From a virus (taxonomy: Duplodnaviria; Heunggongvirae; Uroviricota; Caudoviricetes): a DNA stretch of 7,832 nucleotides. Location: positions 1 through 7,832 of IMG/VR virus record IMGVR_UViG_2534682222_000010; one strand, given 5' to 3'. The notes beneath the pieces are model-generated. The model made no database searches, was not told where the DNA came from, and was given only the letters and a program-made list of their open reading frames with translations. Positions 543-7,832 of this stretch are shown piece by piece (position 1 is the stretch's first letter; the number at the start of each line of letters is the position of its first letter). Both the position numbers and the translations under genes were made by a program.

Positions 543-1517
543 TTAGTTAATTACGAATTCTGCTTTAGCGCCGCGGAAGGAGATTGTTTTGTTTCCTGCC
601 CGCCGGCAAGCATCAGCAATTGCTTTCATGCCATATTCAATATTTGCCAGATGACTTCTCATTGCTACGATTTCAGCCTTAGGCGCTGATACGTCAAACC
701 CTGCCGCCTCAAGAATACTGATCAAGCGAATGGCGGACGATGTTGAATTGTCGCCACAGAGCATAGGCATAGTGACGTCCAGGGCAGGTGCACACATTGA
801 CTTTCCGAATGACAGGTTGCCACTGCGAACCACCGGATTGTTGTCAATCCACCACTGGAGAGGAAGGTTTACGTCAAACTTCGGTGTAGGGAGCGCCTCT
901 TGCTTTCCAAGAAACTCGCCTTCAATCGGTACGCGCGCCGCAATAGATAGCGCTTCGGTAAACTGGTCGTCGCTGATTTCTTTGTAGCTGCAACCAAAGT
1001 GGGATTTCAGTGATGACCACATAGTGATCATTGCCTTGGCCTGACAATCTTTCGGCAGTGCTTTACCACGGGTCATTACCAGTTGTTTGATCGCCTCCTG
1101 CTGCTCGGGAGTGATTTTACCTGGTAATGCCTTTTTCGCCTTGCGTGGGTTTTTGACCTCGCCTTTAGTCCAGTATTCGTAAAGCACATCGTCGCACTCC
1201 TCCTGATAGCGAATGACGTTATCGCGAATTCCTGGCCGTACTTTGTTAGGGCTGATGGTTTGGAGCCAGCCATTCAGTTTGCGTAACGCAAGGCAAAGCA
1301 TGGTTTGTTTACCCCCTTTCGTAGGGATCATGATTTCCATGACCCCTTTAGCAAACCGTGATTTCAGCTTATCGACCTGACCTTGATAGGTTAATCCCAT
1401 GCCATCAATAATTGGGCGCATTGGGGTATAAGCCTCACCGTTGTGCTCTACCACGAAAAGAGAATTTCCATAGAAAGGCACGTTGATTGTACGATCTGCA
1501 ATTGCTAAACTATTCAT
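543..1517 (-). CDS. ant: Phage antirepressor (Ant-like), 324 aa
   Basis: Part of track ORF 543..1607, but I place the start at ATG 1517..1515 (MNSLAIADRTINVPF...), which has AAGGA 7 nt upstream. The track start at 1607 lies inside the arc coding sequence in another frame and has no spacer after its purine run. The N-terminal half resembles the AntA/Rha-type antirepressor domain from memory. Location immediately downstream of an Arc homologue and divergent from an Mnt-like gene matches P22 immI. Confidence 0.75.
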   Translation of the reverse strand: MNSLAIADRTINVPFYGNSLFVVEHNGEAYTPMRPIIDGMGLTYQGQVDKLKSRFAKGVMEIMIPTKGGKQTMLCLALRKLNGWLQTISPNKVRPGIRDNVIRYQEECDDVLYEYWTKGEVKNPRKAKKALPGKITPEQQEAIKQLVMTRGKALPKDCQAKAMITMWSSLKSHFGCSYKEISDDQFTEALSIAARVPIEGEFLGKQEALPTPKFDVNLPLQWWIDNNPVVRSGNLSFGKSMCAPALDVTMPMLCGDNSTSSAIRLISILEAAGFDVSAPKAEIVAMRSHLANIEYGMKAIADACRRAGNKTISFRGAKAEFVIN

Positions 1518-1589
1518 TGTTAGTTCCTTGGTAGTTACTGACAAATTTGAAGCCCTGACTGTTGCTGCAGTTGGGGCTTCGTCGTTTCT
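1518..1589 (+). ncRNA. Candidate sar-like antisense RNA covering the ant ribosome-binding site
   Basis: Plus-strand candidate promoter inside the 5' end of ant: -35 TTGATT (1483..1488), 17-bp spacer, TG-extended -10 TGcTAAACT (1503..1511), predicted start near 1518. About 70 nt downstream is a hairpin plus U-rich tail (see terminator 1549..1589). The transcript would be complementary to the ant SD (1525..1529) and the arc-ant spacer. Inferred by analogy with P22 sar; not demonstrated. Confidence 0.3.
1549..1589 (+). terminator. Candidate intrinsic terminator for the antisense transcript
   Basis: Stem GAAGCCC (1549..1555) / GGGCTTC (1574..1580), with an inner ACTG/CAGT pairing (1558..1561 / 1568..1571), followed on the plus strand by GTCGTTTCT. 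On the minus strand it is followed by AAATTTG, so it is not a terminator in the mRNA direction. Confidence 0.35.
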
Positions 1590-1749
1590 ATGCCTTAATA
1601 AATCCATCTTCTTTCAAGCTCCTTTCTATACGTTTAATCACCTCACTGTTTACCGAGCGCCCCTCTTCTTTTGCTGCTTTCTTCAGGATTTCCTTCAGTG
1701 CATCAGGGAACCGAATGCCTGTTGGAGGGATGTTTCTTGCGTTGTGCAT
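1588..1749 (-). CDS. arc: Arc-like ribbon-helix-helix repressor, 53 aa (not in ORF track)
   Basis: Minus-strand ATG at 1749..1747 with AGGAGA (1760..1755) 5 nt upstream; TAG stop at 1590..1588. Hand translation MHNARNIPPTGIRFPDALKEILKKAAKEEGRSVNSEVIKRIERSLKEDGFIKA. Same length as P22 Arc and, from my memory of that sequence, shares the EEGRSVNSE core and C-terminal KEDG.I.A pattern. Sits directly upstream of ant as in P22. Confidence 0.85.
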   Translation of the reverse strand: MHNARNIPPTGIRFPDALKEILKKAAKEEGRSVNSEVIKRIERSLKEDGFIKA

Positions 1750-1788: not shown

Positions 1789-1837
1789 ATAATTACAGCA
1801 TGTGTCTATTGCGTCAAGCACTTTTCGACTACATTAT
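1789..1837. promoter_or_regulatory. Candidate divergent, overlapping promoters (Pant-like on minus strand, Pmnt-like on plus strand)
   Basis: Minus strand: -35 TTGACG (1817..1812), 17-bp spacer, -10 AATTAT (1794..1789). Plus strand: -35 TTGCGT (1809..1814), 17-bp spacer, -10 CATTAT (1832..1837). The two -35 hexamers overlap on opposite strands. A perfect plus-strand TATAAT also sits at 1788..1793 but has no good -35. Hexamer assignments are by eye and uncertain. Confidence 0.3.
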
Positions 1838-1864: not shown

Positions 1865-2197
1865 ATGAAAGGTGCCAGCTTGATAGCCCCGCTCGGGGTG
1901 AGGATCCCTGAAGATTTAAAGGAAAAAATCCAAGCCCAAGCAAAGGAAAACGGACGGTCGACTAACGCTGAAATCGTTCAAATACTCGAAAGTTCGTTTT
2001 CAAAGCTTGATGAAGGTGAAAACAATCGTTCGAATGAAACTTCAGGCCATTATCAATACTTACTGAGTATGAAGGATGAAATTATTGAGGCACAAAAGGA
2101 AACTATATCTCACATGGAAAACACTATAAATAGCCTCAGCGAGCACATTAACATTCTGAAAGATCATGTTGAGTTTTTGAAGAATAAGTACAAATAG
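1865..2197 (+). CDS. Mnt-like ribbon-helix-helix repressor with C-terminal coiled-coil extension, 110 aa
   Basis: Track ORF 1865..2197. ATG at 1865 with GAGGA (1854..1858) 6 nt upstream. N-terminus LGVRIPEDLKEKIQAQAKENGRSTNAEIVQILESSF fits the Arc/Mnt/MetJ pattern (beta-strand, helix, NGRS turn, helix). The C-terminal ~50 residues look coiled-coil-like with heptad-spaced hydrophobics. Divergent from arc-ant, the position P22 mnt occupies. Confidence 0.7.
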   Translation: MKGASLIAPLGVRIPEDLKEKIQAQAKENGRSTNAEIVQILESSFSKLDEGENNRSNETSGHYQYLLSMKDEIIEAQKETISHMENTINSLSEHINILKDHVEFLKNKYK

Positions 2198-2733: not shown

Positions 2734-3438
2734 TCAACCAATGATAGTCACGCTAACGGGTTGATAAAATGGCATGTGTAGCAGGCCGCTGTCAAACGCC
2801 TGCTTGAACAACGAAGCATATTCGTAGTTCGTGCTTTTTATCAGCAGGATTTTCTTCTGGTTGAACACCTGTGAATTGTAGGAAAATTTGTTGAACATGG
2901 AGGCATCAGTGAGTTTCCTGTACCCTTTGATGATCGATATGCTCGCCCCAGAATCAGAAAACAGAACCGAAATGCTCCACCTCTGATCGTTAACGACGTC
3001 TACGCCATCAACCCCTGTAAGAAACCTCATTATCCGGCGCTTTAACCATGGAATGGTGAAGTAATACCCGTCACCTTTATAGAAATTCCACGTCATGATT
3101 CGCTTAAACAGATCGTCTGAAACGACAACCTGCTCTGACTGATTAACCACCTTTCGCCCATTGAATGGCAACTGGTTGAACAGAACGGCGTTGTACGGGC
3201 CGAAAACGGATTGCTTTCCACTGACCAGCACCGGCGGCTTAACGCCATAAATCCCGCGGGCAATCCATTTTAACTGGTCACCAGCATTATACCCACCGAC
3301 AAAGATCGGAAGGTTGGCATTAATCATCCATGAATAAATTTCCTGAGCCATGGTATTATACGCAGTGACGAAGGCCTGTAGATCATCGTCGTCGTTATAC
3401 TGCGTATACAGATATGATTTAATTATATCTTCCAGCAT
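2734..3438 (-). CDS. Phage tail/baseplate protein, DUF2612 / gpI-like position (234 aa)
   Basis: Track ORF 2734..3456 starts on TTG; the first ATG is 3438..3436, one nucleotide after the TAA stop of the upstream gene (3442..3440). Lies directly after the baseplate-J-like gene, as in Mu-type and P2-type baseplate modules. Family call is from memory of DUF2612-type tail proteins. Confidence 0.55.
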   Translation of the reverse strand: MLEDIIKSYLYTQYNDDDDLQAFVTAYNTMAQEIYSWMINANLPIFVGGYNAGDQLKWIARGIYGVKPPVLVSGKQSVFGPYNAVLFNQLPFNGRKVVNQSEQVVVSDDLFKRIMTWNFYKGDGYYFTIPWLKRRIMRFLTGVDGVDVVNDQRWSISVLFSDSGASISIIKGYRKLTDASMFNKFSYNSQVFNQKKILLIKSTNYEYASLFKQAFDSGLLHMPFYQPVSVTIIG

Positions 3439-3439
3439 G

Positions 3440-4858
3440 TTATATCCCGTCGACAATTACCCCATTTGAGGCCATGTACCAGTAACTATATGGGTCACCG
3501 CTGATTATATTCGTACCGGCGTCAACGCCTGTGATAACGCCGTTCACAGTCACAATAACATTCAGGGTCGAGATCAGGCTCATATCGAGCGTGCTGTTAA
3601 TCGCCTGAAGAAAGACATCTTTGACGTTATTTATATTCATCGGCTTTCCTGCGAATATCCCGTTTACATAATTGATTACCGGTTGCGTCACCAGAGAGGC
3701 TATTGTCGCGTCTGTCAGGTAGTTCGCGCTTTCGGTTGCCCACTGAAACTTGATAGTCACCAGTTGCTGAAATGGTATAACAAACGGTATCAGGTAGTTA
3801 TCTGGCCAGTCGTTGACCGTAACCACATTATTCCTCAGGTTCGGCGTAACTATTCCACCACCAGTCCATGCGCCTGACGAGGTGGTATTGATGCCTATTG
3901 AGAAAGTGTGTGGACTTAACACGGTTATAGTGAGAGGGACGTTATTAATCCCGCTCATGCCGGTAACACCTGCGATATTAATTACCTGGCCAGAGCTGAA
4001 TCCGTGCGTGATGTCGGTCGTTACTACTCCTGGGTTCGCATTGGTGATCCCGGTGACGTTCAGGTCAGTCCCTTTTAGCCTGCTGATGTCGCCGGCTGAC
4101 TTATAAATGGCCCCGGCCATCTCATAGATATCGCCGCCGCCACACATAACAATCCAGGCATTACCGCTCTGAACAACGGAAACCAGACGAGCCTGGACAT
4201 TACTCAGGTCTGTCAATTTCTGGCGGATAAAGCCTGGATATCCCTGAACAGTCGACATCTGAGCTTCCCAGACGCGCTCGCGAAATTCGAAGTTAGTTTC
4301 AGGCGCACCACCTGGGGTGCCAGCAACCGGGTTGGTGCAGGTCAGAGTAATGCCAGACGGCAGGCTGGTCAGTATCTGATTAACCGATCCTACCGGTACA
4401 GCCCACGAACCAGTGTTTGTTGCAATGGCTGTTACCATCGAACTGACACCGGAAGACAGCACCACTGTCGCATCGGCGATCTGGTAGGTATACGTGCCAT
4501 CGCTGACCAGAAACCCCTGTGACACTACGAAGCCGACCGGGCCCTCAAACACGACAGGTACAGTTGTCGCCCCCTGAGTTTTTTGTTCGCTGATACCTGA
4601 CTGCTGGGCCAGAAGGTTCAGCATGTACATATTGGCTTTCAGCGGGCCTACGGAGTTGATGAGGTCGACACGAATCTGATCGGCAATGAGTAGCGCGCCA
4701 ACATCGGTACCGACGATATCCTCGATAAGTGATCCGGGGAGGTCCGTAGTGATGCCTGGTGATAATTCTGTGGCTCTTGAAACTAAGTCGGCGCGCAGCT
4801 CTTCGGATGTTTTCGGCACTGGCCCGGCTGCGTCATAGCTAACGGACAAATCACTCAT
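3440..4858 (-). CDS. Baseplate J-like protein (472 aa)
   Basis: Track ORF with ATG at 4858..4856 overlapping the upstream stop as ATGA. Size and position (after a ~110-aa gene, before the gpI-like gene and tail fibre) fit baseplate wedge protein J of Mu (gp47) or P2 (gpJ). Assigned by overall resemblance and synteny; unverified. Confidence 0.65.
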   Translation of the reverse strand: MSDLSVSYDAAGPVPKTSEELRADLVSRATELSPGITTDLPGSLIEDIVGTDVGALLIADQIRVDLINSVGPLKANMYMLNLLAQQSGISEQKTQGATTVPVVFEGPVGFVVSQGFLVSDGTYTYQIADATVVLSSGVSSMVTAIATNTGSWAVPVGSVNQILTSLPSGITLTCTNPVAGTPGGAPETNFEFRERVWEAQMSTVQGYPGFIRQKLTDLSNVQARLVSVVQSGNAWIVMCGGGDIYEMAGAIYKSAGDISRLKGTDLNVTGITNANPGVVTTDITHGFSSGQVINIAGVTGMSGINNVPLTITVLSPHTFSIGINTTSSGAWTGGGIVTPNLRNNVVTVNDWPDNYLIPFVIPFQQLVTIKFQWATESANYLTDATIASLVTQPVINYVNGIFAGKPMNINNVKDVFLQAINSTLDMSLISTLNVIVTVNGVITGVDAGTNIISGDPYSYWYMASNGVIVDGI

Positions 4859-5187
4859 ACGTTCACCGTTGTGATAATTTTAGAACCGGCGTTCGTAATC
4901 GCCGAAATGTTGTATACAGGCGGATCATCACTCACAATGGCGATCTGCAGCGATGAAAAATACGGACTAAATTGCCGCTGAAGCCTGTCGACATAGTAGG
5001 TAGGCAGCACCTGCTGAATAACAGAGCTCTGGGACGGTATGCCGTTGTTTGCAAAAAATGGTGACTCCTGCGGAGCCAGCTTGAGGTTCTGGATCAGCGT
5101 CGTCAGATAAATAGAATCATTGAAGCCGTTTTCATCCGGCACCACCAGCACCCACTTGCCATTTGCATCTCTTCCGTAGGTTCTCAT
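4855..5187 (-). CDS. Small baseplate protein in the gp25/gpW-equivalent position (110 aa)
   Basis: Track ORF; ATG at 5187..5185 overlaps the upstream stop (ATGA) and its own stop overlaps the next start. I do not see a clear gp25 signature in the sequence, so the call is positional only. Confidence 0.4.
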   Translation of the reverse strand: MRTYGRDANGKWVLVVPDENGFNDSIYLTTLIQNLKLAPQESPFFANNGIPSQSSVIQQVLPTYYVDRLQRQFSPYFSSLQIAIVSDDPPVYNISAITNAGSKIITTVNV

Positions 5188-5900
5188 TGCGTGATATTCC
5201 CGTTGAAAGTGGTGGTCGGGGCGCCAGTGTTTGAACCGCCATTCCCGTTTGTATGCTGATGGTTATTCAACCATGCGACCAGAGCTGCCCAGCCGGTATG
5301 CATAATCTCCGGGCTGGTGCTGGCGGTTGAATCCTGTAACTTCCCGCTCTGTCCTGTGATGCTCCACATTCCCTGGGTAAGGGTTAGAACGGTGCTACCG
5401 ACAGTGACCTTAAACAAATCGACGGCCGCAATCGTCACGCTGTCCGGAGTTAACAGAAACGTCGTGTTGCTTCCCTGGTCCCTGATAGTTACGCCCTCAG
5501 GTCCGTAGATAGTGACAACATTCCCGTCTACGGCTTCCCATTCAGTGTTGCTGATCGGCAGGTATACCAGGGCGCTAAGGTTGGCTGGAGGGGTCAGGTC
5601 GGCGATACCACCGCCCTGCCCGCTGACGCCGCCGAGATAGGTGTCGGCAGGAATAACAATGCCTTTATCACCCGGCTGCATCGGATAGCGGATGTACTGT
5701 GGACCAAAAAGCGGAATGGTGACATTCGGGAAAACATATGGGGTGTCGTGCAACTCGAAGGCCACGGTGACCATATTGCCATTCTGCTCAACAATGCTGG
5801 CGGGCAGGATTTTCCCGGCAGCCTGGAACGCCTCATTAAATTTCTGCTCCGCGAATCGGTTCATGTTCCGGCCGAAATTAAGCTTCTGGTCAACACTCAT
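5184..5900 (-). CDS. Baseplate central spike-like protein (gpV/gp45/Gp138-like), 238 aa
   Basis: Track ORF; ATG at 5900..5898 overlaps the upstream stop (ATGA). Position between the hub-like and small wedge-like genes; Gly/Thr/Asn-rich C-terminus typical of spike tips. Family call from memory and synteny. Confidence 0.45.
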   Translation of the reverse strand: MSVDQKLNFGRNMNRFAEQKFNEAFQAAGKILPASIVEQNGNMVTVAFELHDTPYVFPNVTIPLFGPQYIRYPMQPGDKGIVIPADTYLGGVSGQGGGIADLTPPANLSALVYLPISNTEWEAVDGNVVTIYGPEGVTIRDQGSNTTFLLTPDSVTIAAVDLFKVTVGSTVLTLTQGMWSITGQSGKLQDSTASTSPEIMHTGWAALVAWLNNHQHTNGNGGSNTGAPTTTFNGNITQ

Positions 5901-6919
5901 TTTGTCTTAACCGCCTCCGCCGGGTATGCCTCAATCACCGTGATCCACGCCTCTGCTGTCGGCTGCCTGCTGTTACCCAGCAACCTCACCGACTGAACGA
6001 CAAATTCGCCGTTAAACGCTGAGTCATCGCGAAACTGCGAGTAAGAGGATGCCTGAATCATCGGCCTGGCCTTTTCCGGCATCAGGATGTGATCGCCGGT
6101 CTGAAGGTCAGCGCGCATAACGCAGATGACGCTGACGACACCAAAGCTGATCCACGTTGGCTGACCTATCAGGTCATTGAAATTTATCTGGACAGGGTTT
6201 TTGCTCCTTCCCGTCGCGCTGGTTTTTGAACCCTGATCCGGGTGGTTGGCGTAGTCGTTATCCCACACCCGGATTTCGTTGCCATTGACCACGGCAATTT
6301 CCACCCCCGTATAGCCGGGGTCTTTGATGCGGGATAGCGAAAACGCCCTCAGGTTTTTTGCCAGCTCAGTGAGGGAGCCGCAAAACATGGGGCGATCGTA
6401 ATTCAGCGTCAGCCTGTCGCTGATGCTTATGTTCGGTGTAAATCCCCCCATCGTCATGACACATTGTGTCAGTGCTACGGAGAGTTTCTGCCCCATAGAC
6501 CATGGCATTGTCAGCTGGAGAGGAACCATTTGCCCGCGGGTTGTGGTGTTAACTGGACCAGAAACAATGATAAAATCAAGACGCATTTCTGTTCCTTGCC
6601 AGTTTCCGAATACCTGAAACACATAACCCTCAATAGCTAACTTTTTATTCCCCACGCCCGCCAGTGGGAGCCCTTTTGACATGCCAACAAAGATCTGAAT
6701 TTTTTTGCCATAGAGGTTCTGCCTTGCCTGCTGCATTTCTCTCGGCCCAATCCCCCATATTGTTAAATGGGTTTCACCCTGCGGGGTAGACTCTCCGAAC
6801 CTGAGAATGTCAAATTCAACCATCAAGGCGCCAGGGTTGTACGCTCCATTTTTATGACTGGAGTAGTGCTGGATGACTTTATCATTGCTATCAAGAATGT
6901 TTATCTCGTAATAACGCAT
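5897..6919 (-). CDS. Baseplate hub-like protein (Mu gp44/P-like position), 340 aa
   Basis: Track ORF; ATG at 6919..6917 shares one nucleotide with the upstream TGA (TGATG). Size and position immediately upstream of the spike-like gene fit a baseplate hub. Positional inference. Confidence 0.4.
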   Translation of the reverse strand: MRYYEINILDSNDKVIQHYSSHKNGAYNPGALMVEFDILRFGESTPQGETHLTIWGIGPREMQQARQNLYGKKIQIFVGMSKGLPLAGVGNKKLAIEGYVFQVFGNWQGTEMRLDFIIVSGPVNTTTRGQMVPLQLTMPWSMGQKLSVALTQCVMTMGGFTPNISISDRLTLNYDRPMFCGSLTELAKNLRAFSLSRIKDPGYTGVEIAVVNGNEIRVWDNDYANHPDQGSKTSATGRSKNPVQINFNDLIGQPTWISFGVVSVICVMRADLQTGDHILMPEKARPMIQASSYSQFRDDSAFNGEFVVQSVRLLGNSRQPTAEAWITVIEAYPAEAVKTK

Positions 6920-7194
6920 CAGCTTTTTACCTCAATCTGCCCGTTCTTTTCGCGCCAGATCATGGTCGTCGATGAGAAAACTCCACTTAAAAGGTTTATC
7001 CCCCCAGCAGATGTTGAACCTACGACGGCGGTATTCATGACCGTGTTGTCAGAACTATCAGTGATCAGCAGGTACCAACGCTGTGCGGCGATGTTCCACT
7101 TCATCTGGCAGGTATAAACGTTCCCGTCAAGAATTGGTGAGAACGTCACGCTACGCTGCTCTCTTCCAGTAAATGGATAATTGACGGTACTCAT
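6919..7194 (-). CDS. Hypothetical phage structural-module protein (91 aa)
   Basis: Track ORF; ATG at 7194..7192 overlaps the upstream stop (ATGA) and its stop overlaps the next start, so it is almost certainly translated as part of the operon. No family recognised. Confidence 0.45.
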   Translation of the reverse strand: MSTVNYPFTGREQRSVTFSPILDGNVYTCQMKWNIAAQRWYLLITDSSDNTVMNTAVVGSTSAGGINLLSGVFSSTTMIWREKNGQIEVKS

Positions 7195-7832
7195 ATCCCG
7201 AACGCCCCCTGGAGTTTACCTATCAGTCCAATTACCCCCTCCGCACTACTTGCTACTGCTCCACCTAGGGCGGTATTGCCAAGAGCTGATGCCGTATTTG
7301 TCCATGATGGTGCCTTATTAGGATCCCCGGCATCTATTCTCTTGAGGAAGTTGGTAACTGCTCTGTCAGCATCATTGGTGGTAATAAGTGGCTGCTCGAA
7401 ATCCCAGAGCCAGGACCGCTGAGGAAGCGGATCATTACCGGATGAGTTGTCCTTAACCGTTTTCAGGATGCAGTTGTTGTAGATAATTGACGGCGTGGCC
7501 ACGATGTAAGTCCCGCCCAGGTTGGCATGCGCCTGAAGCACCGCCTGCAGCGCGCTCAGTGTTACCAGTTTGGTCATAGCGCCAGTATTCTCGTTCACTG
7601 GCGCATCCATCATCAGGCTGACCCTCAGCGGCTGAGCCAGAAGCGCGTTGGCCGCGACGGTCTGGTTAGCGAATGGGTATTTAGCGATGTCATAGTCGAC
7701 CATCGTTGCGCCCTGAACAGGACGCCAGTGACAGAAATATTTATCCAGATCGGTAAGGTTGATTGCTCCTCCGATCAGCCCGGTTACAAAGCTGGCGCTC
7801 TGGGTTAGTGCCACTATGGGCAGCATGCCGCC
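7191..7832 (-). CDS. Phage tail/baseplate-associated protein, partial (upstream part probably outside window)
   Basis: Track ORF 7191..7826 (211 aa from the first ATG), but the frame stays open through the last two codons to the window end at 7832, so the true start may lie beyond the window. Gly/Ala-rich C-terminus. Positionally equivalent to a DNA-circulation or tape-measure-adjacent protein; unverified. Confidence 0.45.
   Translation of the reverse strand, partial: GGMLPIVALTQSASFVTGLIGGAINLTDLDKYFCHWRPVQGATMVDYDIAKYPFANQTVAANALLAQPLRVSLMMDAPVNENTGAMTKLVTLSALQAVLQAHANLGGTYIVATPSIIYNNCILKTVKDNSSGNDPLPQRSWLWDFEQPLITTNDADRAVTNFLKRIDAGDPNKAPSWTNTASALGNTALGGAVASSAEGVIGLIGKLQGAFGI

Follow-up and report, generated by a model that had tools for sequence, protein, structure and literature searches.

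The window, that is, the whole stretch of viral DNA analysed (7,832 nt), contains an immI module of the P22 type oriented along the minus strand, with the gene order mnt-like, arc and ant, in agreement with P22 and epsilon34 (Table 1). The ant start codon is the ATG at 1517-1515 of the minus strand, the arc stop codon occupies 1588-1590, and the spacer between both genes amounts to 70 nt, versus 68 nt in P22. The position of the candidate Pant matches that of the annotated Pant of P22 and epsilon34, from which its identity is inferred. The module is flanked by baseplate hub/wedge-family genes and a tail-fibre gene (2734-7826 and 2-484, respectively, all on the minus strand), as opposed to the podovirus tail genes of P22; judged by this neighbourhood, the host phage is no podovirus of the P22 kind. 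As in P22, immI lies just upstream of the gene of a receptor-binding protein.

Table 1. Features of the immI module of the window and of the predicted antisense element, with the evidence for each.
Feature	Position	Strand	Evidence
ant, antirepressor gene (324 aa)	543..1517	-	PHROG anti-repressor Ant families, E = 5.8e-66 and 1.1e-61
Psar -35 hexamer, TTGATT (4/6 consensus), 17-nt spacer to -10	1483..1488	+	Sequence
Psar TG-extended -10, TGcTAAACT (TG 1503-1504, TAAACT 1506-1511)	1503..1511	+	Alignment with epsilon34 Psar
Stem-loop I, 8-bp stem UUGUUAGU / ACUGACAA	1517..1544	+	Fold
Predicted sar RNA, about 68-72 nt	1518..1589	+	Rfam RF00262, own covariance model, fold
ant Shine-Dalgarno AAGGA, 7 nt 5' of ATG; putative sar target	1525..1529	-	Sequence
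Hairpin II, 14-15 bp G+C-rich stem, 4-nt loop; predicted intrinsic terminator	1548..1581	+	Terminator scan
U-rich terminator tail UCGUUUCU, running into the arc stop	1582..1589	+	Sequence, terminator scan
arc-like repressor gene (53 aa)	1588..1749	-	PHROG Arc-like repressor families
Candidate Pant (TTGACG, 17 nt, AATTAT, with TG), would drive arc-ant towards sar	1789..1817	-	Promoter scan
mnt-like Arc-family repressor gene (110 aa), divergent from arc-ant	1865..2197	+	PHROG Arc-like families

Concerning the nucleotide relationships of the module, a megablast search of the interval 1300-2300 against phage and E. coli genome collections found nothing, and sensitive blastn returned 70-79% identity to the immI regions of Erwinia, Salmonella and Stx phages and of P22, in the last case detectable over about 80 nt only. 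The closest contig, L024, is 91.8% identical to the window across 5.4 kb.

A search of the window with Rfam release 15 gave a plus-strand match to the sar family (RF00262) at 1517-1584, with 46.9 bits against a gathering score of 43 (E = 2.5e-7) and over the full length of the model (positions 1-68 of 68); no other family reached its gathering threshold in the window. The margin of 3.9 bits rests mainly on the second of the two hairpins described below. With the same model, scores of 97.8 bits were obtained for P22, 95.6 for epsilon34, 84.6 for CUS-3, 77.3 for S.Kent and 29.5 for phi330, and no match at E < 0.1 was found in Oslo and Midgardsormr38, while 11 of 16 sampled IMG/VR or genome loci were missed at the gathering score. 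Judged by these scores, the sar family is much broader than the current Rfam model, which at its gathering score misses most of the structurally clear relatives, among them those of Stx-type phages, Oslo and Midgardsormr38. Weak matches of two relatives to ctRNA_pGA1 (28 bits against a gathering score of 45) were discarded, as they reflect a generic likeness of a hairpin followed by a U-tail.

Conservation was analyzed in 94 ant loci collected by an Ant protein search of genomes and IMG/VR. A covariance model of our own, built from eight aligned sequences, matched the window at 1517-1589 with 88.1 bits and located the element, antisense to ant and abutting its ATG, in about 70 of the 94 loci, which correspond to 57 unique promoter-plus-RNA sequences. 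Four plus-strand matches of this model were ignored because they were the reverse complement of hairpin II.

The original prediction included a TG-extended -10 element within the first codons of ant, firing away from this gene. It was found on the plus strand at 1503-1511, where TGcTAAACT overlaps ant codons 3-5 (Ser AGT, Leu TTA, Ala GCA), while the ant codon Ile-11 (ATC) provides, with its third base, the G of the -35 TTG. Taken by itself, this putative promoter (Psar) is at chance level: of 200 shuffled versions of the window, 61 contained the motif TGNTAWACT one or more times, and a generic promoter scan of the window did not list Psar, because only 8 of its 12 consensus positions are matched. 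What raises Psar above chance is its register with the Psar of P22 and epsilon34, the Rfam match and its conservation among relatives. In an alignment of eight regions (window, P22, epsilon34, CUS-3, S.Kent, phi330, Midgardsormr38 and Oslo), TTGCTAwACT was invariant and coincided with the -10 (TATACT) of the epsilon34 promoter that is annotated as 'located by similarity with P22 Psar'. In P22 the TG-extended -10 occupies the same position, ant codons 3-5, with TATACT instead of the TAAACT of the window, which is one step weaker; the -35 regions also differ (TTGATT in the window, GTGTTA in P22), as a consequence of two additional codons that separate both elements in Ant of the P22 type. A minus-strand site reported by the promoter scan at 1544-1516 (TTGTCA, 17 nt, AACAAT) was rejected, since transcription from it would start within ant, 3' of the ATG, and since stem-loop I, read in reverse complement, already accounts for its hexamers.

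Among the unique relatives, the TG was kept in 56 of 57, and the -10 hexamer was TATACT in 29 and TAAACT in 19, so that the TAAACT of the window is a common variant of the family. TTGATT, TTGATA or TTGATG was present at the same -35 distance in 40 of 56. The alignment of 55 distinct ant 5' ends gave zero synonymous entropy at codons 3-5 (Ser-3 AGT in 51/51, Ile-4 ATA in 28/28, Ala-5 GCA in 51/51) and 0.16 bit at the Ile codon that supplies the -35 G, which was ATC in 41 of 42, as compared with values mostly of 0.6-2.1 bits for codons 20-39 of the same alignment. This codon usage shows that the putative sar promoter constrains synonymous sites of ant, even if the freezing of codons 3-5 could be due in part to a constraint on ant translation initiation.

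The predicted transcript would begin at 1518-1519, just outside the ant ATG, if the spacing between -10 and start known from epsilon34 and P22 is applied: 7-8 nt past the -10 as in P22, the annotation of epsilon34 placing the start of its sar RNA 8 nt past the Psar -10. The 3' end would fall within the U-rich tail, at 1585-1589. The size of about 70 nt compares with the 68/69 nt of P22 sar, and the locus between arc and ant is the same, so that the similarity to P22 sar in size and position held. A folding check of the transcript had also been proposed, and the 73-nt RNA 1517-1589 folded into two hairpins with -32.7 kcal/mol and z = -6.05; since none of 200 shuffles was as stable, the structure of the RNA is beyond chance. 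Stem-loop I displays the anti-Shine-Dalgarno UCCUU (1525-1529) in its apical region. For hairpin II, the terminator scan gave a 15-pair hairpin at 1548-1581 of the plus strand followed by TCGTTTCT, with a U-tract that is interrupted (UCGUUUCU). Of the originally proposed hairpin with a U-rich tail reaching the arc stop, about 70 nt downstream of the promoter, the hairpin and the tail were recovered, but not the distance, because the hairpin starts 37 nt past the -10 and it is its end that lies about 70 nt past it. The full complementarity of the transcript to the ant Shine-Dalgarno and the arc-ant spacer is perfect by construction.

Compared to P22 sar, which is described by RF00262 and annotated also in epsilon34, the element of the window is at the same locus, antisense to the arc-ant spacer and with its 5' end abutting the ant ATG, it shares the two-hairpin architecture and the mnt/arc/ant context, and the stem of its hairpin II is identical to that of P22. 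The difference lies in stem-loop I, with 8 bp in the window (UUGUUAGU...ACUGACAA) and 6 bp in P22 (GUUGGU...ACUGAC). The stem-loop I type of the window is common to Oslo and to the loci L076, L031 and L008, and it is present in Klebsiella-type prophages. Elements with the same promoter, position and two hairpins occur, unannotated, 5' of ant in Stx phages, Oslo, Midgardsormr38 and many IMG/VR prophage contigs; most of them score below the RF00262 gathering threshold, and their hairpin II differs from that of the window by compensatory changes.

The evolution of the two hairpins was examined in these relatives. With an alignment made by MAFFT only, RNAalifold recovered hairpin II, with compensatory changes in 10 of 13 pairs, and did not recover stem-loop I, because its subtypes misalign. 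In the alignment fitted to the covariance model, 93.7% of the cells were paired, versus 30-48% with slid partners, and compensatory double changes were seen in 17 of the 22 pairs (stem-loop I, 7 of 8; hairpin II, 10 of 14), a count to be read knowing that a model-fitted alignment leans towards structure. When the sequences were folded one by one, stem-loop I appeared in nearly all of 54 relatives despite their differing sequences, with stems such as UUGUUAGU/ACUGACAA, UCAAUA/UGUUGA, UAUCAGUU/AACUGGUA and UGUCUAG/UUGGACA, and with a CCU/UCC anti-Shine-Dalgarno in its apical region. When about 55 distinct relatives are compared, the two-hairpin architecture, its strand and its promoter all bear signs of selection.

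These results bear on the possibility that the promoter is real and acts mainly through transcriptional interference, with polymerases from Psar colliding with those from Pant or occluding them, and with the RNA as an incidental product. Psar and the candidate Pant are indeed convergent and about 265 bp apart, and sequence alone cannot separate interference in cis from RNA pairing. Against this, compensatory changes in 7 of its 8 pairs have preserved stem-loop I across many differing sequences, the anti-Shine-Dalgarno is always found within the apical region of stem-loop I, and action in trans is listed for P22 sar (PMC12197685). The covariation of stem-loop I indicates that the sar RNA itself matters, not just convergent transcription, and we consider interference as the main mode of action improbable.

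Another alternative is that there is no sar RNA. The hairpin would then belong to the arc-ant mRNA and serve there, for instance, in processing, stabilisation or coupling, and the promoter motif would be a by-product of the N-terminal codons of Ant. Every hairpin exists on both strands, and synonymous usage is often biased near start codons. The asymmetry between strands is nevertheless strong. In hairpin II, 102 cells of the alignment were G·U on the sar strand versus 6 A·C cells, which on the strand of the ant mRNA would form G·U pairs; being G·U confined almost to the plus strand, many pairs would be A·C mismatches in the ant mRNA. The sar strand was the more stable in 54 of 54 relatives, with mean values of -28.6 versus -18.4 kcal/mol, and the U-rich tail follows the hairpin on the plus strand only. 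The G·U asymmetry and the stability of the sar strand indicate that the structure is selected in a plus-strand RNA and not in the ant mRNA. The frozen Ile ATC that provides the -35 G also argues against this alternative, as it is 11 codons away from the ant start codon, with a distance of exactly 17 nt to the -10. Moreover, P22 sar is experimentally established and aligns to the window. An mRNA structure devoid of sar RNA is, on this evidence, very improbable.

A third explanation concerns the start of ant. In the window, the ant frame is open up to an ATG at 1607 (ORF 543-1607, 354 aa, overlapping arc), and if translation began there the arc-ant spacer would be coding and its conservation would be that of a protein sequence. 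The frame is also open in 32 of 57 relatives, and the GenBank records of Oslo and phi330 place the Ant start at such an upstream site. However, in-frame stops occur in 25 of the 57 relatives; in the locus L025, whose Ant is 95% identical, an almost unchanged leader sequence stands in another frame relative to ant; and the element measures between 71 and 77 nt, with length differences not divisible by 3. In addition, ATG 1517 has a good Shine-Dalgarno 7 nt upstream, P22 Ant begins at the homologous MNS..., and conservation tracks base pairing rather than codons. A coding spacer is hardly credible in view of these data: the extended ORF was rejected as coding on account of the in-frame stops, the frame shift in L025 and the variable length, and the true ant start is, as judged by this comparison, ATG 1517 and not the upstream ATG of the mechanical ORF. 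A 126-aa ORF on the plus strand (1483-1863) was also rejected as coding. As a minor point, upstream-open ant frames are found, besides that of the window (543-1607, minus strand), in L004 (725-1699) and L006 (641-1645), and the GenBank Ant annotations of Oslo and phi330 are probably too far upstream, their extension not being conserved.

Every defining feature of sar that could be tested was thus found. The element sits within an immI module (mnt, arc, ant); it has its own putative promoter in the 5' end of ant, homologous to P22 Psar; it is antisense to the arc-ant spacer and covers the ant Shine-Dalgarno, with its 5' end adjoining the ant start codon; and it comprises two stem-loops, of which the 5' one contains an anti-Shine-Dalgarno and the 3' one, rich in G+C and followed by a U-rich tail, is the terminator hairpin. 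For this reason, it is assigned to the sar family as a divergent member. The interval 1483-1589 of the plus strand is very probably a homologue of P22 sar, encoding an antisense RNA against the ant ribosome-binding site; the original reading as a sar-like antisense RNA is therefore endorsed by the Rfam match, the Psar alignment, the mnt-like/arc/ant context and the signs of selection in about 55 relatives.

The sar mechanism has been known since 1987, and its current understanding is unchanged by these results. The details of P22 considered here were drawn from secondary sources and database annotation. P22 sar, with 68/69 nt, pairs with the ant mRNA and blocks translation initiation (PMC12197685, PMC7968456, PMC2629481), and it is detected by RNA-seq (PMC13397905). 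By analogy with P22, a weak sigma-70 promoter with its TG-extended -10 in the first ant codons would initiate at about 1518-1519, transcription would head away from ant over the 70-nt arc-ant spacer, and hairpin II with the U-rich tail at the arc stop would end the transcript, so that the RNA would measure about 70 nt and form two stem-loops. This RNA would be exactly complementary to the ant leader and would display the anti-Shine-Dalgarno UCCUU in stem-loop I, so that its pairing with the arc-ant mRNA would occlude the ant ribosome-binding site and less antirepressor would be made. It would thereby form a post-transcriptional layer on top of the Arc/Mnt-type repression of Pant. The transcription of sar, its exact ends, its base-pairing action and its effect on lysogeny are accordingly, for this genome, those to be expected from P22.

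With respect to other antisense RNAs of phages, c4 of P1/P7 lies upstream of its target on the same strand and is processed from the operon transcript, instead of being encoded on the opposite strand. The element of the window does not belong with c4, as it is on the strand opposite to ant and sar is the sole Rfam family that reaches its gathering score. Both have in common that a small RNA blocks, or in this case would block, translation of an antirepressor at the ribosome-binding site (PMC12197685).

As to the significance of the assignment, the annotation of the window gains a non-coding gene, ATG 1517 is settled as the start of ant, and the picture of an immI switch of the P22 type becomes complete in a phage whose tail is of a different type. 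The comparison of relatives also shows that sar is far commoner among ant-bearing enterobacterial phages, Stx phages included, than the Rfam model detects.

Concerning the low score obtained with RF00262, the sar of the window is a mosaic of the P22 hairpin II stem and a non-P22 stem-loop I. Its type of stem-loop I was found paired with 9 different types of hairpin II, and the P22 type of hairpin II with 7 types of stem-loop I. The marginal score is explained because the halves of sar reassort freely among phages, and the combinations suggest a hot spot of recombination within sar, where arc and ant meet. Reassorted sar types are seen among the loci L008-L101, for instance at 3929-4001 of L076 and 3928-3999 of L097. 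A more speculative proposal, which we hold to be rather unlikely, is that sar consists of two modules, of which stem-loop I moves together with ant and hairpin II with arc, each recombining independently of the other, and that the variants of stem-loop I are trans-acting specificity classes. If it were true, these classes would decide which co-resident or superinfecting phages silence the antirepressor of each other, as an RNA-based layer of heteroimmunity like c4 of P1/P7.

Some other features of the window are worth mentioning. The Pant/Pmnt region contains a 24-nt direct repeat (1771-1794 and 1828-1851, 88% identical, 57 bp apart), both copies of which hold the palindrome CTACAT-T-ATGTAG; one copy overlaps the predicted start of Pant and the other a possible -10 of Pmnt. 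The N-terminal strands of the Arc-like and Mnt-like proteins are similar (PTGIRFP and PLGVRIP), and because of this likeness both proteins may read the same operator, unlike Arc and Mnt of P22. An A+T-rich minus-strand ORF at 2231-2692, coding for 153 aa with a signal-peptide-like N-terminus (MIKKIGITCFLYFFSTVHVGLAAP), occupies the place of sieA and other moron genes of P22 and gave no match in a PHROG search; between this ORF and the mnt-like gene there is a hairpin (2201-2222). Just past the ant stop, at 502-530 of the minus strand, a strong hairpin resembling an intrinsic terminator was noticed by eye (AAACCCGC-TTCG-GCGGGTTT followed by TTTTTTATT); since the tail-fibre gene, which starts at 484, lies beyond it, late transcription would need to read through this hairpin.

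Among the relatives, the contig L100 carries two sar-like elements of different types, at 3929-4001 and 6224-6297, about 2.3 kb apart. The second one lies ahead of a divergent gene resembling ant, and its -10 region is deviant.
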